From Candidatus Aenigmatarchaeota archaeon (lineage in GTDB: Archaea > Aenigmatarchaeota > Aenigmatarchaeia > CG10238-14 > SCSR01), in NCBI GenBank assembly GCA_018304615.1, contig JAGVVV010000010.1:26000-89999 (forward strand): DNA of 64,000 nucleotides. The letters are read 5' to 3'. This document shows positions 12,050 to 58,042 of this stretch, piece by piece. The number at the start of each line of letters is the position of its first letter. Position 1 is the stretch's first letter. Below the pieces are notes generated by a model. The model made no database searches. It was not told the origin of the DNA and saw nothing but the letters and a program-made list of their open reading frames with translations. The position numbers were made by a program, and so were the translations under genes.

Positions 12050-12724
12050 TTGAACGTTCTGACTATTGGGGACATACACAACGATGTTGAGAATATCATA
12101 AATTATGCTGACAAGCTTTCTATGCTGGATTTTGATGTAATAGTCTGCCCTGGAGATTTCACTGATGTTCCTCCTAGAGGATTCACTTCTGTCGAGATTG
12201 CAAAATTAATCATAGAAGAGCTGAGAACTTTCAAAAAACCTATTCTGGCTGTTCCAGGGAATTGGGACGATAAAGTGTTAGAATATTTGGAAAAGGAAGA
12301 TATGAGCATCCATGGAAGAGGAAAGGTTGTAGGTGATGTTGGCTTCTACGGATTCGGAGGTGCGAAGACTCCATTCAACACACCGCTCGAACCTAGCGAG
12401 GAAGAGATAGAACAGGGGTTGAAAAAAGGATTTTCTAAAGTAAGTAACGCGAGATATAAAATTCAGGTCACACACATCCCTCCTGCGCGAACGAAAATTG
12501 ATACGACTTACTCTGGGGCGCATATAGGATCTGAAGCTGTAAGAACTTTTATCGCAGAAAATCAGCCTGATGTTGCGGTGTGCGCGCACGTTCATGAAGG
12601 AAAAGGCACTGATGAAATCGGAAAGACAAAATTATTGAATGCCGGAAGATTCCCAGAAGGATATTTGGGTATGATTTCGTTGAAACCGCAGGAAGTTTCT
12701 GTGAAAATTGTCAACTTAATCTGA
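12050..12724 (+). CDS. Calcineurin-like metallophosphoesterase
   Basis: 224 aa, TTG start. Motifs 'GDIHND', 'PGDFTD', 'PGNWD', 'THIPP', 'CAHVHEG'. Confidence 0.85.
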   Translation: MNVLTIGDIHNDVENIINYADKLSMLDFDVIVCPGDFTDVPPRGFTSVEIAKLIIEELRTFKKPILAVPGNWDDKVLEYLEKEDMSIHGRGKVVGDVGFYGFGGAKTPFNTPLEPSEEEIEQGLKKGFSKVSNARYKIQVTHIPPARTKIDTTYSGAHIGSEAVRTFIAENQPDVAVCAHVHEGKGTDEIGKTKLLNAGRFPEGYLGMISLKPQEVSVKIVNLI

Positions 12725-12780
12725 CTTCTTTGCAACCAAAAAGCTTTATTATGCCCAGAATGAAATTATTAAATCCTAAG

Positions 12781-12844
12781 CCCACGGAAACGGAAAGGTA
12801 AATTTAATCAGCTTAGTGTAACCACGGAAAAGGAAAAGGAAAGG
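12781..12844 (+). repeat. Two purine-rich direct repeats with core CCACGGAAA, 40 nt apart
   Basis: cCCACGGAAAcGGAAAGG at 12781-12798 and aCCACGGAAAaGGAAAAGGAAAGG at 12821-12844, immediately upstream of the ATG at 12850. Confidence 0.5.
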
Positions 12845-12849
12845 TAGAA

Positions 12850-13227
12850 ATGACTAGGTTAGATTCAGTTATAAACATTTCTATAGAGCAAGATATAGAA
12901 AAGACTGTAAACGAATTTGCCGAAAGGTTGGACTTTTTGGATGTGCAGCTGTTGAGGAAATTCTATGTCACTAATTCTCCTTTCCCTTATGATACGCAAC
13001 CATACTGTTTCCCCCTTCTTTACAAGGAGATGAGGGATGTCCATAAGATCAAAATCGGCAGCGAAGCCTTGAGGAAGAGGCTTGATAACCTAGTCAAAAT
13101 TGGTCTTCTAGAAAAGATTAGGAACTCCAACCCTGCCAACTATTCGCCGGTTAGGGGTAGGGAGAATTTTGTCCGCGCAACTGTTATGAAATTCTTCATG
13201 CTCAGTGGGTTACAGAAATATTTATGA
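12850..13227 (+). CDS. Hypothetical winged-helix DNA-binding protein
   Basis: 125 aa. 'LDFLDVQLLRKFY' and 'GSEALRKRLDNLVKIGLLEKI' resemble the HTH and recognition helix of Lrp/MarR-like wHTH proteins. No closer family recognised. Confidence 0.45.
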   Translation: MTRLDSVINISIEQDIEKTVNEFAERLDFLDVQLLRKFYVTNSPFPYDTQPYCFPLLYKEMRDVHKIKIGSEALRKRLDNLVKIGLLEKIRNSNPANYSPVRGRENFVRATVMKFFMLSGLQKYL

Positions 13228-13330
13228 AGTTTCTCTTATGAGTTTTTGTAAGTGTTCAAATTACAATTAAACTTGTATAGTAGGATTTAATTTTTTATGA
13301 AGGTTCACTAAAGGGAAATAACAATTACTG

Positions 13331-13340
13331 TGAACGTTCA
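13331..13340. promoter_or_regulatory. Perfect 10-bp palindrome TGAACGTTCA within a cluster of GTTCA half-sites
   Basis: TGAACGTTCA at 13331-13340. Extra GTTCA(C/A) half-sites at 13253-13257 and 13303-13308. Lies in the 207-nt spacer between two wHTH genes. Confidence 0.3.
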
Positions 13341-13364
13341 AAGGAAAAAATGCGAACAGTTAGA

Positions 13365-13434
13365 ATTTTAATATGATAATATAACATATAATAACTATCA
13401 TAATAATATATAATATAACAAACAATATTTTATA
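13365..13434. other. Extremely AT-rich tract with ATAATATAAC direct repeats (strong promoter region or candidate DNA-unwinding element)
   Basis: About 70 nt, almost entirely A/T. ATAATATAAC at 13376-13385 and 13410-13419. Abuts the ATG at 13435. Confidence 0.3.
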
Positions 13435-14073
13435 ATGAAAGAAGCCACACTACGAGTTCTTTTTGAAAAACACCTTGCCAACAACAACACAAAATTTACG
13501 AGCGACCTTAAAACAAATGCCGGACTTGTCGACTATGTAATAGAGTCTGACGGGCAATTACACGCCATTGAAGTAAGGGGATCGCGGGCAAACACCAGCA
13601 ACACAATAGGACATTTGGTCAACATCCATAGAGCCTTTTCACACGTATACCTCTTAGCGCCCCCAACACTCATAGAAAAGGTCGATAAAATCCTTAAAGG
13701 GGCCAGGGTTCTGCCGACACTTGGTATTATTACTGTGGGCAAAGAAGGCCCGGTCTATATTAAAAAACCAAGCCCAGACAGGTATTATTTCAACAAACCA
13801 GAAGAGGTTAAAACAAAAAGTATTTACAAGGCACATCATCTAATCCTAAACGCCACCGACAAAGAAATATTGCAACATTTTAAAGAAATCCCTCTGACCG
13901 TTGCAGAAGTGTCGAAAACTCTTGGCACCACAATGCCAAACGCCTACCGAAGAATCTTGAGATTGAAAAGAGCGAAACTTATCGAAGAGCTTACAGACGG
14001 CTCTGTTTACCCAAAAACCTATAAAATTGTGCCAAATCTGAAAATAGACGAGATAATTTCGCTGGACGTCTAA
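13435..14073 (+). CDS. Hypothetical fusion protein: N-terminal NucS/RecB-like (PD-(D/E)xK) nuclease-fold domain + C-terminal winged helix
   Basis: 212 aa. 'NAGLVDYVIESDGQLHAIEVRGS' fits the GxxDxxxxDxxGxxxxxE-x-K motif with R in place of K. C-terminal 'LTVAEVSKTLGTTMPNAYRRILRLKRAKLIEEL' is wHTH-like. Confidence 0.45.
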   Translation: MKEATLRVLFEKHLANNNTKFTSDLKTNAGLVDYVIESDGQLHAIEVRGSRANTSNTIGHLVNIHRAFSHVYLLAPPTLIEKVDKILKGARVLPTLGIITVGKEGPVYIKKPSPDRYYFNKPEEVKTKSIYKAHHLILNATDKEILQHFKEIPLTVAEVSKTLGTTMPNAYRRILRLKRAKLIEELTDGSVYPKTYKIVPNLKIDEIISLDV

Positions 14074-14218
14074 ACCAACCATTTTCAGAATCATTTCAAA
14101 AAATCGGAAGTTTTGCCGAATAAAACCCAATTCTCGCCTATTCCCCCAACAGAAGCCACTTATTCAACAAAACCAAGTCGGATTAAAGAATAAATATGAC
14201 AAATCATAAAAATTCTGT

Positions 14219-14476
14219 ATGAAACGTGGAAGGCCAGCAATCCGCAACCTCATGCACGACACTATCCTTTCAGTTCTTACCGAAACACAGGTCCCTTTAA
14301 CAGTCTCAAACCTCGCCAGATTCGCATCTGAAAAGACAGGGAGAGTCCTGAGTTGGAACACGGCTCAGAAATATGTCCAAGAATTAGTAGAAGTCAACAA
14401 GGTCCAGCCAATCACACTACCGCATTCTAAAGAACCAGGTAAAGAAGGCCTGACAGTTTATACTCTGAAAAAGTAA
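14219..14476 (+). CDS. Small winged-helix protein with N-terminal AT-hook-like motif
   Basis: 85 aa. 'MKRGRPAIRN' contains the R-G-R-P AT-hook core. 'LTVSNLARFASEKTGRVLSWNTAQKYVQELVEVNKV' is wHTH-like. Ends 12 nt before the DP1-like gene. Confidence 0.45.
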   Translation: MKRGRPAIRNLMHDTILSVLTETQVPLTVSNLARFASEKTGRVLSWNTAQKYVQELVEVNKVQPITLPHSKEPGKEGLTVYTLKK

Positions 14477-14488
14477 CTTGGTGGTCGC

Positions 14489-15601
14489 GTGGAGAGAAAT
14501 GAAATAGTCAAAATTTTCCTCGACAAAGGGTATATGATAGATACAACCAGCCTTGATTTTTTTTCTGAAAACCAAACAATGGTGCAGCCATTTCTAGATT
14601 ATTATTCTGACCTGGAAGACAAGACCGGTTCCATCGACATCAATTTAGTCCAAGAGATTTTGAAAATAAAAATTTCAAGTCTGCAAATTATAAAGACAGC
14701 AAACAAAAAACAAAAAATATCGGTATCAGACCAATCGACGTTTCTTAACAAAAGATTCGACGCAATTAAAAAAATAATGAATAACCGGCTAGATTTGATA
14801 AATCTTGTATCGATAAACAAAATCTCGCAGAAAAGTAAAAAATTCTCCCTGATAGGCATCGTCAAAAATAAAAATGATGAGACTAAATCTCTTATCCTCG
14901 AAGACACCACAGGTGAGGTAGAGCTATTTTTTTCAGAAAATTTCTTTTCTGATTACGATTCGATTCTTCACGATGACATTCTAGGGTTCATTTGTTCTAA
15001 CGAGTTTGGGCGGTACTATTACATAAAAACAGTTTGGCCTGACATCCCTCTGACTCGCGAAGTCAAAAAAACAAAAGAAAATTACAAATGCATCTTCGCA
15101 TGCATTTCCGACTTGAACGAAGTACTTACAGATTGGTTAAACAAATCTGCAGACGAAGAATCGGCAATTTTCATTTTCCCAGTTGGAGACAACAAGAACG
15201 TAAAAAAAATATTTGAAAAACTACCCCATTCATCAGTGAAATATTTGGTTGATGGCACTTCTATCATTTCTCTTTCCGGATTAACGTTTTTCCTTTCAAA
15301 CAACCAGATCTACAAAAAATACCAGGAATTTTTTAAAACGACCCCTGAAGCAACTTTGACGAATCTGGTAAAAAGGAGAAATATGAACCCAAGTCTTGAC
15401 TTTGATAAATCAGTTTACGATGATGACCCATTCATTCTAGATCAAGTTCCGGACGTAATAGTTGTCAGCACCCTCGACGAACAATCTGTTTCCAACTACA
15501 AAGGCACCAACGTCCTCACTATAAAGGACTTCGCACTAGGAAATTCTGTTCTTGTTCTCGACACGAAGACGCGAGAGGTTATAAAGATTGGAATATTATA
15601 G
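14489..15601 (+). CDS. DNA polymerase B-subunit / PolD small subunit (DP1)-like protein with degenerate phosphodiesterase motifs
   Basis: 370 aa, GTG start. N-terminal 'EIVKIFLDKGYMIDTTSLDFF'. OB-like 'FSLIGIVKNK..LILEDTTGEVELFF..VWPDIP'. PDE-like region with 'ISDLN', 'VGDNKN', 'KRRNMNP', 'PDVIVVSTLD' where DP1 has its metal-binding His/Asp motifs. Confidence 0.6.
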   Translation: MERNEIVKIFLDKGYMIDTTSLDFFSENQTMVQPFLDYYSDLEDKTGSIDINLVQEILKIKISSLQIIKTANKKQKISVSDQSTFLNKRFDAIKKIMNNRLDLINLVSINKISQKSKKFSLIGIVKNKNDETKSLILEDTTGEVELFFSENFFSDYDSILHDDILGFICSNEFGRYYYIKTVWPDIPLTREVKKTKENYKCIFACISDLNEVLTDWLNKSADEESAIFIFPVGDNKNVKKIFEKLPHSSVKYLVDGTSIISLSGLTFFLSNNQIYKKYQEFFKTTPEATLTNLVKRRNMNPSLDFDKSVYDDDPFILDQVPDVIVVSTLDEQSVSNYKGTNVLTIKDFALGNSVLVLDTKTREVIKIGIL

Positions 15602-15608
15602 ATAAGAT

Positions 15609-18302
15609 ATGGAACTGGTTTTTCAGGTAATAGACTGTGATTACACAGAACTGAACAACTCGCCTCTTGTCAGATTATTTGGCAAAACAGAGGACGGGAA
15701 GACAGTCTGCGCTTTCTTTGAGAATTTCATGCCTTATTTTTATGTCAAAGTTTCCAACGAAGAAGAACTCATGGTGTTTCTTAATAAAAATTTTAATTCT
15801 CTGGTCAGTAATGTTGAAAGTGTGAAAAAATTTCTTCCACTTGGCTATCAAGAAGAAAAAACTGATTTGCTCAAGATTGTGCTCAAAGATCCTGCCCAGA
15901 CTCCAGTAATCAGGGACGAACTGAAAAGGCACAAATTCGTAGAAGAAATTTACGAAGCTGACATACTTTTCAAATACAGATTCATGGCAGACAGGGGGGT
16001 CTTTGGGATGAGGTGGGTTAAGGTTGAAGGTTCTCCAAGTTCAACTGTCACAGTCAGAACCGACAAATTTATTTCTGCCAAGAGTGTCACTACAATCGAA
16101 AATAATTCAAACGTCCCGCTAAGACACATGGGTCTCGACATAGAGGTAGTCCCAAGCACCGAGGTAGTTCCAAATGCTGTAAAGGATCCGATTGCCATAG
16201 TCAGCCTCTCATTCCTCCCCTCCTTTTCTAACGAAAACACGCTAGTACTTGTCGCCAAACCTTCCACGAAAAAAGAAGATGGTTCTCTTTTTTTCAAGAA
16301 CGAGAAGGAAATGCTCGAGAAATTAGTGGAAATCATCGGCGATTACGATCCTGACGCGATTGTAGGTTACAACATAAACAATTTTGACATGCCGTATCTT
16401 CTCGAGAGATTAAAGCAGAACAAACTATCAAGAGTTCTCGGTCGTGACAGCGAGAAAATCGTGATGAGCAAAAAATTCGGGAACAAGACAAGGAACAACA
16501 TTCTAGGAAGATTTGTCATCGATGTTTATGAATTGATAAAAGAATCTGCAGGCAAAGGCCTGCTGAGATTAAAAAGATACGGGCTCGGGGACGTTTCCAG
16601 AGAACTCATAGGTGAAGACAAGGTAGACATCGCGCACAGTGAAATTTCAAAGCATTGGAATGGAGACCTAAACATGCTGTCCAAATTGATTACCTATTCT
16701 AGAAAAGATGCAGAGTTAGTTCTAAAACTTCTGATACAGAAAGACATGATAGAAAAATTCATAGAGCTCTCCAAAGTCAGCGGCCTTTTGCTTCAGGATG
16801 TTTTAGATGGAGGCGAAGCAAACAGAGTCGAGAACGTTCTTTTGAGAGAGTTCAATCGACAAGAATTCGTCGTCCCGAACAAACCCGAAGGAAGCGTGAT
16901 GGCTAAGAGAGATCAAGAAAGGGAATCCAAAGGACTGAAAGGTGCGCTCGTCCTTGATCCGGAAATCGGCCTTCACACAAAACCTGTCATTTATCTTGAC
17001 TTCAGATCCATGTACCCTTCAATCTATGTCGCGTACAACATTTGCCCCACAACACTTCTTACAAAAGACTTACCATTAGATTCTTACAAAACATCGTTCG
17101 GGTCGAAATTCGTCACTCCCAAAATCAGAGAAGGAATAATCCCAAAAATTGTCAAGCAACTAATAACAGACAGAGATGAGATCAAAAAACAAATGAGAAA
17201 GGCAAAAAACGAAAAAGAAAGGAAGATGCTTGAGGCTAAACAGATTGCGATAAAATATGTCACAAATTCCTTTTACGGATACACTGGGTACGTCCGTGCT
17301 AGATTTTACGTACTCGACGTTGCCAGCGCAATCACCAGTTGTGGTCGTGAACTTATCCAGAAGACGAAGAATAAAGTCGAAGAGGACAAGAACTTCAAGG
17401 TGATTTACGGGGATACAGATTCTATAATGGTCAGGACACCAGCCTCTAATATTGACGATGCAATGAAGGTCGGTCTAGAGATAGAACAGAAGATAAATAA
17501 GGAGCTTGAAGGTGTAGTCCAGATGAAAATCGAAGGCATCTTCAAGAGCATTTTGATATTGGCCAAGAAAAGGTATGCCGGCCTTAGCAACGAGAAAGTA
17601 GACGGCGAGTGGCAAGAAAAGTTAGTCATGAAAGGAATCGAGACCGTGAGGAGAGATTGGTGTGACTTGGTCTCGAAAACACTTTACGACGTATTAGAAA
17701 TAATTTTGAAAGAGCAGGATCCGAAGAAGGCTTTCAAGTATGTGAAAGGAATTTTAAGCAAACTTGAGAAGAACGAGATTCCACTCGAACAGCTTTTGAT
17801 AACAAAAAGCATCTCCAAATCTTTGGGCGAATACAAAGGCATGCAGCCCCACATTGAACTTCTCAAGAAGATGAGGAAGAGAAGCCCTGCGACTGCTCCA
17901 GGTATAGGCGACAGGATAGGTTTTGTGATAGTAAAAGGTTTGCAGTTGATGTCAGACAGGGCTGAGGACCCGGAATATGTGAAGCAGAATCATCTTCACA
18001 TAGACTCTAAATATTATGCAGAGAGCCAGATACTTCCGCCACTGGAGAGAGTCTTCGAGGCCATAGGAATAGATAAAACTGAGTTGCTTGGCCTCGGTAG
18101 GCAGACTCTTTTGAGAGACATGTTCAAGAACAGCATCAAAAAAGCACCTGAACCTGAGAGCCTCACAGATTATTCAGGTCTAATCTGCGGAAAATGTAAC
18201 AAGACATATAGACGATCTCCTTTGGTTGGCAAGTGCTTCGATTGTGGTGGCGAACTGATGTTCTACTCAGGCGAAACAAAATCGAGGTTTGTCTCAGCAT
18301 GA
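15609..18302 (+). CDS. polB: Family-B DNA polymerase with C-terminal Cys4 zinc ribbon
   Basis: 897 aa. ExoI 'LDIEV', ExoII 'YNINNFDMPYL', ExoIII 'YSRKDAEL', motif A 'DFRSMYPSI', motif B 'KYVTNSFYGY', motif C 'YGDTDS'. Extra tail 'CGKC-x13-CFDC' (nt 18186-18245). Confidence 0.95.
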   Translation: MELVFQVIDCDYTELNNSPLVRLFGKTEDGKTVCAFFENFMPYFYVKVSNEEELMVFLNKNFNSLVSNVESVKKFLPLGYQEEKTDLLKIVLKDPAQTPVIRDELKRHKFVEEIYEADILFKYRFMADRGVFGMRWVKVEGSPSSTVTVRTDKFISAKSVTTIENNSNVPLRHMGLDIEVVPSTEVVPNAVKDPIAIVSLSFLPSFSNENTLVLVAKPSTKKEDGSLFFKNEKEMLEKLVEIIGDYDPDAIVGYNINNFDMPYLLERLKQNKLSRVLGRDSEKIVMSKKFGNKTRNNILGRFVIDVYELIKESAGKGLLRLKRYGLGDVSRELIGEDKVDIAHSEISKHWNGDLNMLSKLITYSRKDAELVLKLLIQKDMIEKFIELSKVSGLLLQDVLDGGEANRVENVLLREFNRQEFVVPNKPEGSVMAKRDQERESKGLKGALVLDPEIGLHTKPVIYLDFRSMYPSIYVAYNICPTTLLTKDLPLDSYKTSFGSKFVTPKIREGIIPKIVKQLITDRDEIKKQMRKAKNEKERKMLEAKQIAIKYVTNSFYGYTGYVRARFYVLDVASAITSCGRELIQKTKNKVEEDKNFKVIYGDTDSIMVRTPASNIDDAMKVGLEIEQKINKELEGVVQMKIEGIFKSILILAKKRYAGLSNEKVDGEWQEKLVMKGIETVRRDWCDLVSKTLYDVLEIILKEQDPKKAFKYVKGILSKLEKNEIPLEQLLITKSISKSLGEYKGMQPHIELLKKMRKRSPATAPGIGDRIGFVIVKGLQLMSDRAEDPEYVKQNHLHIDSKYYAESQILPPLERVFEAIGIDKTELLGLGRQTLLRDMFKNSIKKAPEPESLTDYSGLICGKCNKTYRRSPLVGKCFDCGGELMFYSGETKSRFVSA

Positions 18303-18832
18303 ATTTTTTTGACATCGACTTAGAAATCCTGAAATTCATTAATCAACCATTCGTGCCTACCTTCAACTTCGCTTTCATTTTAACAATTTTTTCAGTTTAC
18401 GGGTATCTTGCCTTTCTTCTTTTTTATTTTTTCAGAACGAAACAGAAAGACAAGATGTTCAGGATCCTAATAATTTCAGTCGTCGGGATACTTCTTGTGA
18501 ACGCAATCAAATTTTCTGTGAACAGGCCAAGACCGTCCGCAGCCATAGAAGGCGTCAATCAAATCCTAATAAAATCTGATCCGTCATTTCCATCATCCCA
18601 CACATTCATCGCCATCCTGTGTGCCTTCTTCACTCCAAAATCATTCTCGCGCTTCCTACGGATCCTTCTCAACTTCTATCTAGTAATCCTAATACCAATT
18701 GGTCTAGTTTACATAGGAGTACACTACCCATCAGATGTCCTAGTAGGAGGGCTTCTTGCTTTTCTCATTGTCAAATTCTTCAATGAGAAAAGGGCAAACT
18801 CTATCAAGTCTTCCCTGAAGTTAAAGTTTTGA
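18299..18832 (+). CDS. PAP2-family lipid (poly)prenyl-pyrophosphate phosphatase
   Basis: 'KFSVNRPRP', 'PSFPSSHT', 'GVHYPSDVLVG' are the three PAP2 motifs. ATG 18299 overlaps the polB stop (ATGA). The ORF-track start at 18233 lies inside polB. Confidence 0.85.
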   Translation: MNFFDIDLEILKFINQPFVPTFNFAFILTIFSVYGYLAFLLFYFFRTKQKDKMFRILIISVVGILLVNAIKFSVNRPRPSAAIEGVNQILIKSDPSFPSSHTFIAILCAFFTPKSFSRFLRILLNFYLVILIPIGLVYIGVHYPSDVLVGGLLAFLIVKFFNEKRANSIKSSLKLKF

Positions 18833-54784: not shown

Positions 54785-57700
54785 TTGTCTATAGAATATA
54801 GAAGGAGGATTTTTCTGGCTGACGAAATAAAAAACGATTCCCTCGCTGAAGAGCTGCTGAAAGAGACAAGAGGATTGAAGATTCCTAGATTTTTCACGAA
54901 ACCGGGAGTAAATCCACTAGATCAAATAGAATATGAACTTCGGTCATCTGTCATCAGAAACACAGACGGGTCAATAGTCTTTCAAATGAACAACGTGGAA
55001 GTTCCTAAATTCTGGTCGCAAGTAGCCACAGACATCCTCGCGCAAAAATATTTGAGGAAAGCAGGCGTCCCTCAACTTGATTCTTATGGGAGACCGATAA
55101 TCGACATGAACGGGAATCATGTTCTAGGTTCCGAAACCAGCGTGAAGCAAGCAGTTCACAGGCTCGGAGGCTGCTGGACTTTTTGGGGGAAAAAAGCAAA
55201 AATGTTTGCCACTGAAGAAGACGCACAGTCTTTCTATGACGAATTGGTTTTCATGCTTGTTAATCAGTTCGCATCTCCGAACTCTCCACAGTGGTTCAAT
55301 ACAGGCCTGAACTTCGCTTATGGAATCACTGGCCCCCCTCAAGGGCATTGGTATGTTGATTTTGAAACAGGAGAGCTCTTGAAATCCAAAGACGCTTATT
55401 CCCACCCACAAGTCCACGCTTGCTACATTCAACCAATCAAGGACGATCTCGTGAATGAAGGAGGGATAATGGACCTTTGGTTGAGGGAAGCCAGAATTTT
55501 CAAATATGGTTCAGGAACTGGCACTAATTTCTCAAACCTCAGAGGAAAGGGAGAACCTCTATCAGGAGGTGGAAAATCTTCAGGGCTGATGTCCTTCCTG
55601 AAAATCGGAGACAGGGCTGCCGGCGCAATAAAATCCGGCGGGACAACGAGAAGGGCGGCGAAGATGGTTCTTTTGAACATAGATCATCCAGACATTGAAG
55701 AATTCATAAACTGGAAAGTCGAGGAAGAGAAAAAAGTCGCGGCTATGATTGCAGCCGGCTACCCTTCTGATTACGAGGGAGACGCTTACCTGACCGTCTC
55801 AGGCCAGAATTCGAACAATTCGGCGAGGGTTCCTAACAGATTCATGAAAGCTCTTCTGGAAGACGGGACTTGGGACTTGCATTGGAGGACTGACGGTAGA
55901 ATTAGCAAGACCTTGAAAGCAAAAGATTTGTGGAATCAGATTTGCAACGCAGCCTGGGCATGCGCAGATCCAGGCCTCCAGTTCGACACTACGATAAACG
56001 AATGGCACACATGCCCCGAATCAGGAAGAATTAACGCGAGCAACCCATGCAGCGAATACATGTTCTTGGACAGCACAGCATGCAACCTTGCTTCGTTGAA
56101 TCTGATAAAATTCTTCGACAAAGAGACGTCAACATTCGACGTTGAGGCATTCAAACATGCAGTAAGACTTTGGACAATTGTTTTGGAGATCAGTGTGGTA
56201 ATGGCGCAGCAACCTTCTAAAGAAATTGCCGATCTCACTTATCAGTTTAGGACTCTCGGCCTCGGTTACACCAACTTAGGATCCATACTTATGATATCAG
56301 GAATTCCTTACGACAGCAACGAAGCACGTGCAATCGGAGCTGCAATCACTGCTATCATGACAGGCGAATCTTATGCAACTTCTGCCGAGATGGCAAATAA
56401 TTTCGGCCCATTTCCCCAATTCCAGAAAAACAGGGAGCACATGCTCAGAGTCATCAGAAATCACAGAAGAGCTGCATACAATGCAAAACCAGAGGAGTAT
56501 GAGAACATTGAGGTCATTCCAGTCGGGATTGATTCGAAAGTCTGTCCGCAATATTTATTGAATGCAGCAGTCGAATGCTGGGACAGGGCTCTTGCTTTTG
56601 GGGAAAAATTCGGTTATAGAAATGCCCAGGCAACGCTGATTGCCCCGACAGGCACAATCGCATTGCTTATGGATTGCGACACGACCGGAATTGAACCAGA
56701 TTTTGCTCTGGTCAAGTTCAAGAAACTTGCAGGAGGCGGCTATTTCAAAATTGTCAACCAATCTGTGACATATTCGCTGAAGAACCTTGGCTACACTGAG
56801 GATGAGATTAGAGATATCATCAAGTACATGAGCGGTTCGAACACTCTCAGAGGAGCTCCGCACGTCAACATGATGTCATTGAAAGAAAAGGGATTCACAG
56901 ACGAAGACCTGAGAAAGATCGAGAAAATCTTACCAAGCGTGTTTGAGATAAATTCTGCTTTCAACGTTTGGACTCTTGGAAAAGAGAGCATGGAGGCCCT
57001 CGGCTTCAAACCAGAAGAATACAATTCTCCGAATTTCAATTTACTCAGATCTCTAGGTTTCAAAGAGAATGAAATTGAAGAGGCTAACGACTACATCTGC
57101 GGAACTATGATAATTGAGGATGCACCACACTTGAAAGAACAACATTATTCTATTTTTGACTGCGCAAACAAGTGCGGAAAGAAAGGCAAGAGATTCATCC
57201 ATCACATGGCGCATGTAAAAATAATGGCGGTCGTGCAGCCTTTCTTGAGCGGGTCTATCAGCAAGACAATAAACATGCCAAACGAGATTACTGTGGAAGA
57301 AATAAATCAGGCATATTTAGAGAGTTGGAAGCTGGCCCTGAAATCAATCGCACTCTACAGAGACGGTTCGAAATTATCACAGCCGCTTGCTGCAAGAACT
57401 CTGGAGAAAGCGAAAGAAGTGGCGGTAGAATACAAACCGATGAGAAGAAAACTTCCAGACGAGAGAAAAGCAATCACCCACAAGTTCCAGATTGCAAACC
57501 AGGAAGGCTACATCACAGTCGGGCTTTATGACGACGGTTCGCCTGGGGAACTCTTTATCGTAATGAACAAGGAAGGAAGCATTGTCTCTGGAACAATGGA
57601 TTCTTTTGCAACAGCAGTTTCTATCGGTCTCCAGTACGGAGTCCCGTTGAGAGTATTGGTTGACAAGTTCACACACACAAGGTTCGAGCCTTCAGGAGTG

Positions 57701-58042
57701 ACAAACAACCCTGAGATAAGAATGGCAAGATCCATCATGGACTACATCTTCCGCTGGCTTGCAATGAAATTCCTGCCAGAGGAAGATTTGGAAACACTTG
57801 GAATCAAAAATTCTTCTAACGGCAATGGCCATTCTCTACCAAGAGAACTTCCCAAGCAACAGCCCGACCAGACAACTTTTACAATCGCCAAATTCATAGA
57901 GCCTAAAAAAGAATCCAAGTCATCTTTTGGTTTTGATATCCAAGCAGATGCGCCGCCATGCCACATTTGCGGTTCCCTGATGATAAGAAGCGGTTCCTGC
58001 TACGTGTGCCTAAACTGCGGAGCTAACAGTGGTTGCGCCTAA
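54785..58042 (+). CDS. nrdJ: Class II (adenosylcobalamin-dependent) ribonucleotide reductase NrdJ
   Basis: 1085 aa. 'IPRFFTKPGVNPLDQIEYE', 'VEVPKFWSQVATDILAQKY', 'HACYIQ', active-site 'ASNPCSEY', C-terminal 'CHICGS...CYVCLNCG'. Start uncertain: TTG 54785 is the first candidate, and no ATG precedes the conserved N-terminal motif. Confidence 0.88.
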   Translation: MSIEYRRRIFLADEIKNDSLAEELLKETRGLKIPRFFTKPGVNPLDQIEYELRSSVIRNTDGSIVFQMNNVEVPKFWSQVATDILAQKYLRKAGVPQLDSYGRPIIDMNGNHVLGSETSVKQAVHRLGGCWTFWGKKAKMFATEEDAQSFYDELVFMLVNQFASPNSPQWFNTGLNFAYGITGPPQGHWYVDFETGELLKSKDAYSHPQVHACYIQPIKDDLVNEGGIMDLWLREARIFKYGSGTGTNFSNLRGKGEPLSGGGKSSGLMSFLKIGDRAAGAIKSGGTTRRAAKMVLLNIDHPDIEEFINWKVEEEKKVAAMIAAGYPSDYEGDAYLTVSGQNSNNSARVPNRFMKALLEDGTWDLHWRTDGRISKTLKAKDLWNQICNAAWACADPGLQFDTTINEWHTCPESGRINASNPCSEYMFLDSTACNLASLNLIKFFDKETSTFDVEAFKHAVRLWTIVLEISVVMAQQPSKEIADLTYQFRTLGLGYTNLGSILMISGIPYDSNEARAIGAAITAIMTGESYATSAEMANNFGPFPQFQKNREHMLRVIRNHRRAAYNAKPEEYENIEVIPVGIDSKVCPQYLLNAAVECWDRALAFGEKFGYRNAQATLIAPTGTIALLMDCDTTGIEPDFALVKFKKLAGGGYFKIVNQSVTYSLKNLGYTEDEIRDIIKYMSGSNTLRGAPHVNMMSLKEKGFTDEDLRKIEKILPSVFEINSAFNVWTLGKESMEALGFKPEEYNSPNFNLLRSLGFKENEIEEANDYICGTMIIEDAPHLKEQHYSIFDCANKCGKKGKRFIHHMAHVKIMAVVQPFLSGSISKTINMPNEITVEEINQAYLESWKLALKSIALYRDGSKLSQPLAARTLEKAKEVAVEYKPMRRKLPDERKAITHKFQIANQEGYITVGLYDDGSPGELFIVMNKEGSIVSGTMDSFATAVSIGLQYGVPLRVLVDKFTHTRFEPSGVTNNPEIRMARSIMDYIFRWLAMKFLPEEDLETLGIKNSSNGNGHSLPRELPKQQPDQTTFTIAKFIEPKKESKSSFGFDIQADAPPCHICGSLMIRSGSCYVCLNCGANSGCA

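Follow-up and report, generated by a model that had tools for sequence, protein, structure and literature searches.

A conserved operon for a family-B DNA polymerase with a DP2-like zinc module and a nuclease-dead DP1 homolog in Aenigmatarchaeota

Introduction

The closest described relative of the locus analyzed here is a polymerase system from the same archaeal phylum. Kazlauskas et al. (2020, NAR, PMC7544198) defined group B6 of the family-B DNA polymerases (PolB), with C-terminal domains (CTDs) that contain either one ('B6-aenigma1') or two metal-binding motifs. In that paper, the single motif of B6-aenigma1 is described as most similar to Zn-III of DP2, the catalytic subunit of archaeal PolD; Aenigmarchaeota with these PolBs are reported to encode an inactive DP1 and no DP2; and it is proposed that the B6 PolBs are of viral provenance and that PolB replaced DP2, after which DP1 inactivation was affordable. 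Here we analyze a stretch of 64,000 nucleotides (the window) from Candidatus Aenigmatarchaeota archaeon (assembly GCA_018304615.1, contig JAGVVV010000010.1, positions 26,000 to 89,999 of the forward strand; positions below are counted from the first nucleotide of the window), in which a gene for a DP1-like protein directly precedes a PolB gene, along with loci fetched for comparison, which are denoted by L numbers. Judged by the PolB motifs, the single Zn motif and the phylum, the window pair is a member of the described B6-aenigma1 system, with which it shares the single DP2 Zn-III-like C-terminal motif, the inactivated phosphodiesterase (PDE) domain of DP1 and the lack of DP2, and from which it differs in nothing essential.

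A second paper (2025, Nat Ecol Evol, PMC12680538) reports that DP1 of Aenigmatarchaeota binds PolB with the DP2-derived CTD, not canonical PolBs, according to AlphaFold3 predictions and yeast two-hybrid assays; that DP2 is absent from Aenigmatarchaeota, in agreement with the 2020 paper; and that B6-aenigma2 is to be reassigned to contamination from Baldrarchaeia. The two-subunit system is thus real, well supported and already known, from the 2020 description and the 2025 yeast two-hybrid data, which settles a point on which an earlier, sequence-only reading of the window was unsure, namely, whether the arrangement had been described. Our additions are increments: a conserved operon, replacement of DP2 in situ, an ordered decay of the nuclease site, a box resembling the PCNA-interacting peptide (PIP), and a small upstream gene, orf85. 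Gene adjacency and an operon are not mentioned in the main text of the 2020 paper (term search), and neither the Cdc6-DP1-DP2 slot nor a graded decay of the PDE site, a PIP-like box or orf85 came up in the passages considered of the two papers, the 2025 paper not having been searched for them.

In PolD, the KxRRxP loop of Zn-III docks into an acidic groove at the interface of the OB and PDE domains of DP1, as seen by cryo-EM, and a 20-amino-acid Zn-III peptide binds DP1 with nanomolar affinity (PMC6355029). The N-terminal domain of DP1 (DP1N) binds Gins51C in Thermococcus (PMC9023282). We consider it very likely that the products of the window pair form a two-subunit replicase, in which PolB is joined to a non-catalytic DP1 docked through a Zn-III-derived tail.

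Results

The DP1-like protein is homologous to the small subunit of PolD

The DP1-like gene (14489..15601, + strand) starts with GTG and encodes a 370-amino-acid, non-catalytic homolog of the B-subunits; the start is backed by the homologs, all of which begin with ME[KRQ]xEI. In a phmmer search against all PDB sequences, the only significant matches were small subunits of PolD (E values from 1.6e-10 to 3.8e-9), namely, DP1 of P. abyssi (6hmf, 5ihe and 6t8h; 1.6e-10 to 4e-10) and of T. kodakarensis (6knb). A canonical metagenomic DP1 of 511 amino acids, used as a tblastn query, matched the protein from canonical residue 6 onward (E value 9e-12). Two Pfam matches were sub-threshold, to PF04042 DNA_pol_E_B (E value 0.013; 15.4 bits vs a gathering score of 29.1) and to tRNA_anti-codon, an OB family (E value 0.008). 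Hence the homology to DP1 and B-subunits proposed from sequence inspection stands on significant matches to DP1 in the PDB (E value about 1e-10), with DNA_pol_E_B of Pfam detected only below threshold.

In an AlphaFold2 model built on 28 family members (pLDDT 90.1, pTM 0.80), the chain begins with four helices and continues through a long helix into an OB barrel of five strands and a compact, reduced alpha/beta sandwich, the PDE part. The model contains each of the parts discerned previously by eye: N-terminal helices, an OB-like core and a PDE region colinear with DP1. In a Foldseek search of the PDB with this model, P. abyssi DP1 ranked first (E value 2.7e-22) and human Pol delta p50 next (7.7e-17), with chains of the Pol epsilon, Pol alpha and Pol zeta complexes at 1e-15 to 1e-7 and the B-subunits of Pol epsilon and Pol alpha at 1e-13 to 1e-10. 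All of the top 49 matches were PolD or eukaryotic replicative-polymerase entries (including 6tny_B and 3e0j; E values from 2.7e-22 to 1.2e-7), and the first outsider appeared at rank 50.

The N-terminal, DP1N-like helical domain (residues 1-60; 14489..14668, + strand), with modeled helices at residues 3-12, 19-27, 29-40 and 51-58, aligns with the N-termini of canonical DP1s; among 91 aligned sequences, positions F10, G14 and L22 each show one residue at a frequency of 80% or more, and L11 reaches 90% or more in smaller alignments. The OB fold (residues 118-185; 14840..15043, + strand) comprises five strands and one helix in the model and is followed by the degenerate calcineurin-like PDE domain (residues 186-370; 15044..15598, + strand), as established by the motif comparison with canonical DP1 and the HMMER alignment. 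Near-invariant acidic residues of the family are the pair E138-D139 in the OB fold, D185 and D322. The OB fold and the C-terminal PDE segment 321-370 are the best conserved regions, whereas residues 186-270, the half of the PDE domain that carries motifs I-IV, are the least conserved and most gapped, the pattern that is expected of a subunit kept for binding and not for catalysis.

Loss of the nuclease site is graded across lineages

Active DP1, our reference, has five PDE motifs with Asp, His and Asn ligands (DxH, GDxxD, GNHD, H and GHxH), a set that the window protein lacks. In the family alignment with canonical DP1s, it has SDLN, no conserved GD, no GNHD, SNN for the motif IV His and STLD for GHxH, so that the His residues of motifs I and IV and the whole of motifs III (GNHD) and V (GHxH) are missing. 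The recognizable remnants, all on the + strand, are ISDLN (15104-15118), VGDNKN (15182-15199), KRRNMNP (15371-15391) and PDVIVVSTLD (15449-15478). In the HMMER alignment to P. abyssi DP1, ISDLN is paired with ISDIH, KRRNMNP with KMRHLAP and PDVIVVSTLD with PDLVQMGHVH, the same pairing as that made by eye in the sequence-only reading, which was essentially correct for these three motifs. For VGDNKN, which had been equated with GDxxDG, the position agrees, as it comes after model strand E225-231, in the stretch from motif I to motif V in which motif II would be expected, but the alignments place it inconsistently, and its GD is not kept in the five closest relatives (LGNGQ, SGESP, PTESD, QLEDP and SNLDI). 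Because it is unconserved even there, this GD is not a constrained ligand. The reading had itself allowed that a proper alignment might find the ligands retained; in the family alignment, the window protein has lost them.

The motif comparison indicates that the decay is graded and ordered across the lineages, with the motif III His missing in every PolB-associated member of the DP1-like family. In a large clade (for example, L002, L003, L010, L011 and L013-L023), SDxH, GD, the motif IV His and GHxH are kept, and motif III reads GE[IVD]D. The window clade (the window, L001 and L009) has lost all these ligand motifs, and in other lineages the protein has shrunk to about 300 amino acids. At the opposite end stand L039 and L080, in which motif III alone has changed (to GNID or GERD) and SDLH, GDxGD/N, the His of motif IV and GHTH are all retained. 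These two DP1-like proteins are candidate evolutionary intermediates that may bind metal. Their genes (L039:6001-7110 and L080:6648-7868) adjoin a Zn-tailed PolB gene, located downstream in L039 and upstream in L080.

Only one Aenigmatarchaeota DP1, encoded in L041 (5995-7083; Aenigmatarchaeota RIFCSPHIGHO2_02_FULL_36_49), has kept a His in the region of motif III in addition to motifs I, II, IV and V. This 362-amino-acid protein, with intact SDLH, GDIGD and GHTH, is labeled a metallophosphoesterase at NCBI; its gene lies directly after Cdc6/Orc1 and is not followed by a gene for PolB, DP2 or any other polymerase.

That the DP1-like subunit might keep a catalytic or metal-binding role, for example, as a second nuclease, is suggested by the L002-type clade, which keeps the four motifs listed above, by L039 and L080, which keep nearly everything, and by the metallophosphoesterase label that NCBI gives to the L039 protein. 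Yet in the window protein the motif I His and motifs III, IV and V are all replaced, and the motif III His that no PolB-associated member has is the one changed in the H451 variant of P. abyssi DP1, termed 'proof-reading deficient' in the title of PDB 6hmf, so that we regard such a role as extremely unlikely.

The PolB tail carries a DP2 Zn-III-like module

The PolB gene (15609..18302, + strand) encodes 897 amino acids, with the exonuclease domain at about 15945-16586 and the polymerase domain at about 16791-18065 (Pfam DNA_pol_B_exo1, E value 2e-33, and DNA_pol_B, 5e-118). All catalytic motifs are present, as had been read from the translation: ExoI (LDIE, 176), ExoII (NINNFD, 255) and ExoIII (YSRKD, 363) in the exonuclease domain, and motifs A (DFRSMYPS, 464), B (KYVTNSFYG, 549) and C (YGDTDS, 600), together with KKRY (653).

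The PolB tail contains a single Cys4 zinc module, CGKC-NKTYRRSPLVGK-CFDC (18186..18245, + strand), which is homologous to DP2 Zn-III, includes the RRxP docking loop and is followed by about 18 residues. The location given for it in the sequence-only reading is right, but the spacing is x12 rather than x13; likewise, the extra tail exists, and it measures 58 amino acids, not about 55, when counted from the PIP-like box where tail-less relatives end. A tblastn search of the six-frame translated window with the 1160-amino-acid DP2 of L008 produced one significant match, between the C-terminal zinc finger of the query and the PolB tail (52% identity over 29 amino acids, E value 3.7e-5). The last 120 residues of PolB, compared with the PDB using phmmer, matched residues 1130-1156 of T. 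kodakarensis DP2 (6knb_B, E value 5e-4) and P. abyssi DP2 (0.02); the thumb segment preceding the Zn module is closest to Pol zeta and Pol delta. A 12-residue loop within the Cys4 motif, with the consensus NKTYRR[IVP]PLxGK, is found in 90 of 94 tails, and the window PolB retains a loop of the docking type, KTYRRSP.

Between the thumb and the Zn module lies the PIP-like box QTLLRDMF (residues 832-839; 18102..18125, + strand). Residues G830, Q832 and L835 do not vary among 6 diverse PolBs, and the pattern G[KR]Qxx[LI]xxhh is present in 34 PolBs. Tail-less PolB relatives terminate at a PIP-like motif in the matching position, and the Zn module therefore appears, at the level of sequence comparison, to have been added behind an ancestral C-terminal PCNA box. 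The box in the window PolB may serve for contact with PCNA.

Several PolBs outside the window differ in their C-terminal organization or gene integrity. Those of L101 (1605-4685) and L121 (3986-7033), which are 37-38% identical to the window PolB, have CxxC-x12-CxC followed by about 60 amino acids ending with QMTLAEFL/QMTLADYI. This longer CTD resembles the full C-terminal region of DP2 with its terminal PIP box and may be the full-length CTD of the Baldrarchaeia type; no DP1 gene was found within +/-4 kb of either. The PolB open reading frames (ORFs) of L111 (about 1268 amino acids) and L105 (about 1058 amino acids) are well above 900 amino acids in length, that of L024 also belongs to this long or interrupted set, and that of L095 is interrupted; in L007, an ORF resembling LAGLIDADG proteins lies just downstream of PolB. 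Inteins or homing endonucleases in or near PolB probably account for these cases.

The gene pair is conserved, and no DP2 was detected

Two sets of loci were compared, one found through the DP1-like protein (7 metagenome loci and 36 loci of GTDB species representatives) and the other, intended to remove ascertainment bias, found through PolB (80 metagenome loci); about 10-13 kb were read per fetched locus, several of them from contigs of 0.8 Mb. In the DP1-ascertained set, PolB directly follows the DP1-like gene in all 7 metagenome loci and in 32 of the 36 GTDB loci (39 loci), and all GTDB relatives with a phylum label and this gene order are Aenigmatarchaeota/Aenigmarchaeota. The two genes are spaced by 1-10 nt in most of these cases and by no more than about 140 nt in the others, with the exception of L024, where the extracted DP1-like ORF is a 224-amino-acid fragment that ends 486 nt before PolB. 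Every one of the 34 complete PolBs has a Cys4 tail, with the spacing CxxC-x12-CxxC in 29 and CxxC-x12-CxC in 5.

Among the 60 complete Zn-tailed PolBs of the PolB-ascertained set, the DP1-like gene is directly upstream in 38 and within about 4 kb in 11 more, where it comes after PolB, is encoded on the other strand beside Cdc6, or stands at a distance of one gene; in 3, the flank is too short to tell. By comparison, the closest tail-less relatives (L108, L112, L115 and L125, the last from IMG/VR; 33-36% identity) have a DP1 gene nearby in 0 of 4 cases, although L108 and L125 have identical PolB tails and gene order, so that the four loci amount to about three distinct elements. This distribution speaks for the two-subunit enzyme.

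This conservation bears directly on the possibility that the DP1-like gene is a functionless relic, decaying since the loss of PolD, with PolB working alone. All nuclease ligands are gone, conservation is lowest and gaps are most frequent in the PDE half with motifs I-IV, the protein is down to about 300 amino acids in some lineages, and it evolves much faster than PolB (34% vs 62% identity between L002 and the window), all of which would fit a relic. Against this, the reading frame is preserved intact in about 90 independent loci, across 20-74% identity, and the near-invariant residues of the protein cluster in the OB fold and the C-terminal segment of the PDE domain; the fold is modeled with confidence (pLDDT 90); the gene is coupled to PolB at 1-10 nt; the PolB tail keeps the DP1-docking loop; and PMC12680538 reports a yeast two-hybrid interaction for the phylum. 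Conservation largely refutes a relic, which we judge to be highly improbable.

Only 64 kb of the genome are visible in the window, and DP1 and DP2 genes are not always adjacent, as in the canonical Methanocorpusculum DP1 loci L040 and L043, which have no DP2 match within about 6 kb downstream. Hence the DP1-like protein could serve a PolD whose DP2 is encoded elsewhere, with the adjacency of PolB being incidental. The searches speak otherwise: tblastn with the DP2 of L008 detected no DP2 core in the 64-kb window, although window data leave room for one elsewhere in the genome; none was found in the 122 PolB-ascertained loci searched (L045-L166); and the DP1-ascertained loci contain no DP2 match beyond the Zn-finger region. 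Both published analyses report DP2 absent from the phylum (PMC7544198, PMC12680538). Furthermore, a PolD with a dead DP1 would be without proofreading, the Zn-III docking module is now on PolB, and PolB occupies the syntenic slot of DP2 (see below). A separately encoded DP2 is, for these reasons, very unlikely.

The nearest tail-less relative of the window PolB raises the prospect that the pair is part of an integrated virus or mobile element and not of the host replisome. This relative, L125 (IMGVR_UViG_3300025867_000581; 36% identity, ending with ...RQHSIFAW), belongs to a replication module of virus-like character, together with a helicase (phrog_2488, E value 6e-60), a thymidylate synthase and a homing endonuclease, L108 being apparently the same element, and the viral provenance proposed for the B6 PolBs in PMC7544198 points in the same direction. 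Nevertheless, the window pair sits in a chromosomal block kept across the phylum (LigT, Toprim, CBS, Hjc, metallophosphatase, ..., PolB, PAP2, glycosyltransferases), housekeeping genes extend across the whole window, and no viral contig with a Zn-tailed PolB or a DP1-like gene was found. Residence in such an element at present is accordingly exceedingly improbable; that the PolB core came from a mobile element long ago would not conflict with a two-subunit host replicase, and the context of L125 fits the published idea of such an origin.

PolB occupies the place of DP2 next to Cdc6/Orc1

Locus L008, which encodes a canonical, motif-complete DP1, has the gene order PRC ... Cdc6/Orc1 - DP1 - DP2 - ... 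- TctA. In six loci with an inactivated DP1 (L006, L007, L031, L032, L036 and L039), the DP1-like gene and PolB come immediately after Cdc6/Orc1, and in five of these (L006, L007, L032, L036 and L039) the stretch read includes TctA, in the order Cdc6/Orc1 - DP1-like - PolB - ... - TctA. L008 and L006 share 51% identity in Cdc6, a value equal to that of the bona fide Aenigmatarchaeota loci L039 and L041; this identity and the shared PRC/Cdc6/TctA synteny are the two observations that would place L008 close to Aenigmatarchaeota. The synteny shared between the Cdc6-DP1-DP2 and Cdc6-DP1-PolB loci indicates an in-place replacement, in which DP1 would have stayed where it was, and DP2 would have been replaced in situ by a PolB that acquired the DP2 Zn-III module. 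The direction is thus the reverse of that considered as a second option in the sequence-only reading, a PolB that captured a decaying DP1.

No Cdc6 gene was detected in the 64-kb window, and a search for origin-like repeats (origin recognition boxes, ORB, and mini-ORB) upstream of the operon, at 12700-14520, yielded only short two-copy matches. Another Cdc6/Orc1 was found in L044 (DYKN01000092.1, labeled Rikenella microfusus), a 4.5-kb contig that was binned with a Bacteroidota genome and encodes an archaeal Cdc6/Orc1 and a DP1 fragment; because this Cdc6/Orc1 is 51% identical to Aenigmatarchaeota Cdc6, L044 is probably a mis-binned archaeal contig.

The operon and its neighborhood

The operon consists of orf85 (14219..14476, + strand), the DP1-like gene 12 nt downstream, PolB after a 7-nt spacer (15602..15608, + strand), and a gene for a PAP2-family membrane phosphatase, identified by sequence context (18299..18832, + strand), whose ATG overlaps the PolB stop codon (ATGA). 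The two ORFs of the pair, with products of 370 and 897 amino acids, and the spacer between them are exactly as previously delineated. Both products have identical NCBI counterparts in Candidatus Aenigmarchaeota, labeled 'hypothetical protein': J4452_03035 (100% identity) for the DP1-like protein and MBS3055438.1 (J4452_03040; 100% identity) for PolB.

The first gene, orf85, encodes a winged-helix protein of 85 amino acids. It has 47 homologs, almost all of 84-97 amino acids, and in 32 loci the gene immediately precedes that for the DP1-like protein; orf85 heads the operon in most lineages, and Cdc6/Orc1 holds this position in others. The family has an invariant N-terminal MKRGR, a near-invariant Pro6 and the conserved core SWNT.QKY...LPHSK...GLTVY. 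The AlphaFold2 model (pLDDT 84) shows an H-H-H-beta-beta topology, a winged helix, with PadR-like/TA0346 regulators as the best Foldseek matches (E value 6e-4). A derivation from the winged-helix domain of Cdc6 was rejected, as there was no signal against the Cdc6 proteins of the Cdc6-type loci (hmmsearch; hhalign probability 0.1%). Identity as a subunit resembling Pol32/p66N or the winged helix of Rpa2 was not supported: the top Foldseek matches were of the PadR, Fur and MarR types, and none of those replisome winged-helix domains were among the top 50.

It is conceivable, albeit doubtful, that orf85 encodes a dedicated DNA-binding partner or regulator of the PolB-DP1 replicase, for example, an origin-proximal factor or a third subunit, rather than an unrelated transcription factor, and, as a separate matter, that the holoenzymes of L039, L080 and the L002 clade keep a second metal site.

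The ATGA overlap of PolB and the PAP2 gene, common to the window and L001, suggests translational coupling of the PAP2 gene to the replicase operon; in L004, the two genes are separated by 45 nt. Pfam PAP2 matches were obtained for the orthologous genes of L001 and L004, and no PAP2 gene occupies the position after PolB in L002 and L003. Elsewhere in the window, 54785-58042 (+ strand) encodes a class II (B12-dependent) ribonucleotide reductase of 1085 amino acids with a C-terminal TSCPD domain, whose barrel domain was matched in two stretches and may thus be split by an inserted element, for example, an intein. A single tRNA-Pro was all that the window yielded in Rfam and tRNA scans, and it is irrelevant to the replicase pair.

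Discussion

The pair combines features of two kinds of replicative polymerases. With archaeal PolD (P. abyssi, PDB 6T8H/6HMS), it shares a homologous small subunit (OB and PDE, preceded by a helical domain that is predicted to be DP1N-like), a homologous Zn-III/RRxP module and, in some lineages, the slot next to Cdc6/Orc1. It differs from PolD in that the catalytic subunit is a family-B polymerase instead of the double-psi beta-barrel DP2, the small subunit lacks the nuclease ligands and is about 140 amino acids shorter, and the CTD lacks the DP2 helical bundle and the C-terminal PIP. With the nuclease ligands of DP1 lost, proofreading must come from the PolB exonuclease domain. Eukaryotic Pol delta, Pol alpha and Pol epsilon (human p125-p50, PDB 6TNY) resemble the pair in having a family-B subunit, a Cys-rich C-terminal module and a dead-nuclease B-subunit with OB and PDE domains, and the order of thumb, PIP-like box and Cys module in the window PolB resembles that of Pol delta. 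Unlike the eukaryotic enzymes, the window PolB has one Cys4 motif, equivalent to Zn-III/CysB, not CysA and CysB, and its CTD has no helical part, so that the combination of two Cys motifs and a helical bundle that defines the eukaryotic-type CTD is not found; third and fourth subunits are not in evidence.

The Baldrarchaeia system, as presented in PMC12680538, is similar in the fusion of a PolB (PolB3) to the DP2 CTD, the loss of DP2, the retention of DP1 and the yeast two-hybrid interaction, but its CTD is full length, like the CTDs of DP2 and eukaryotes, whereas that of Aenigmatarchaeota is shorter. Direct ancestry to eukaryotes is debated, and the same paper favors Baldrarchaeia PolB3 with the full-length DP2 CTD as the closer relative. 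The eukaryote-like PolB holoenzyme envisaged in the sequence-only reading is supported by our tests of sequence, fold and context and by the published yeast two-hybrid and AlphaFold3 results.

We regard the following mechanism as very likely. A proofreading family-B polymerase would take the place of DP2, supplying both synthesis and 3'-5' proofreading from its own sites. The Zn-III-derived Cys4 module, via the basic YRRxP loop, would dock in the acidic OB/PDE groove of the DP1-like protein, a mode of binding that agrees, at the level of sequence, with the lasting adjacency of the two genes and with the RRxP loop kept in the tail. The DP1-like protein would be a scaffold only, like the eukaryotic B-subunit, with the PDE/OB body holding the polymerase and the N-terminal helical domain probably tethering the enzyme to GINS in a CMG-like helicase; the PIP-like box probably links the enzyme to PCNA. 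We infer that the two proteins are co-translated from one operon and that the enzyme acts as the main replicase.

Several observations weigh against this interpretation. The published binding data apply to the phylum, not to this particular window pair, and PMC12680538 describes the CTD of Aenigmatarchaeota as 'degenerate' and predicts another structure for it. In PolD and in eukaryotic CTDs, a helical bundle makes contact with DP1 as well, and this bundle is missing from the window tail. No DP1 gene is present within the available flanks of 8 of the 60 Zn-tailed PolBs, and, as pointed out above, the 64 kb examined leave open a DP2 gene elsewhere in the genome. Residues 1-68 of the DP1-like protein gave no phmmer match to the solved DP1N structures in the PDB, so that GINS binding is conjectural, and positions 7-8 of the PIP-like box are hydrophobic, not aromatic, in most family members.

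As a two-subunit replicase, the Aenigmatarchaeota system would be the clearest living archaeal example of the step that yielded the eukaryotic replicative polymerases, in which PolB inherits the docking module of DP2, and DP1 becomes a dead scaffold. This importance has already been recognized in print (2020, 2025), and the value of the window is mostly practical, in that two genes for 'hypothetical proteins' can now be named. The context provided by the survey, namely, the operon, the replacement next to Cdc6, the ordered decay and the winged-helix gene, could guide the choice of proteins for biochemistry.

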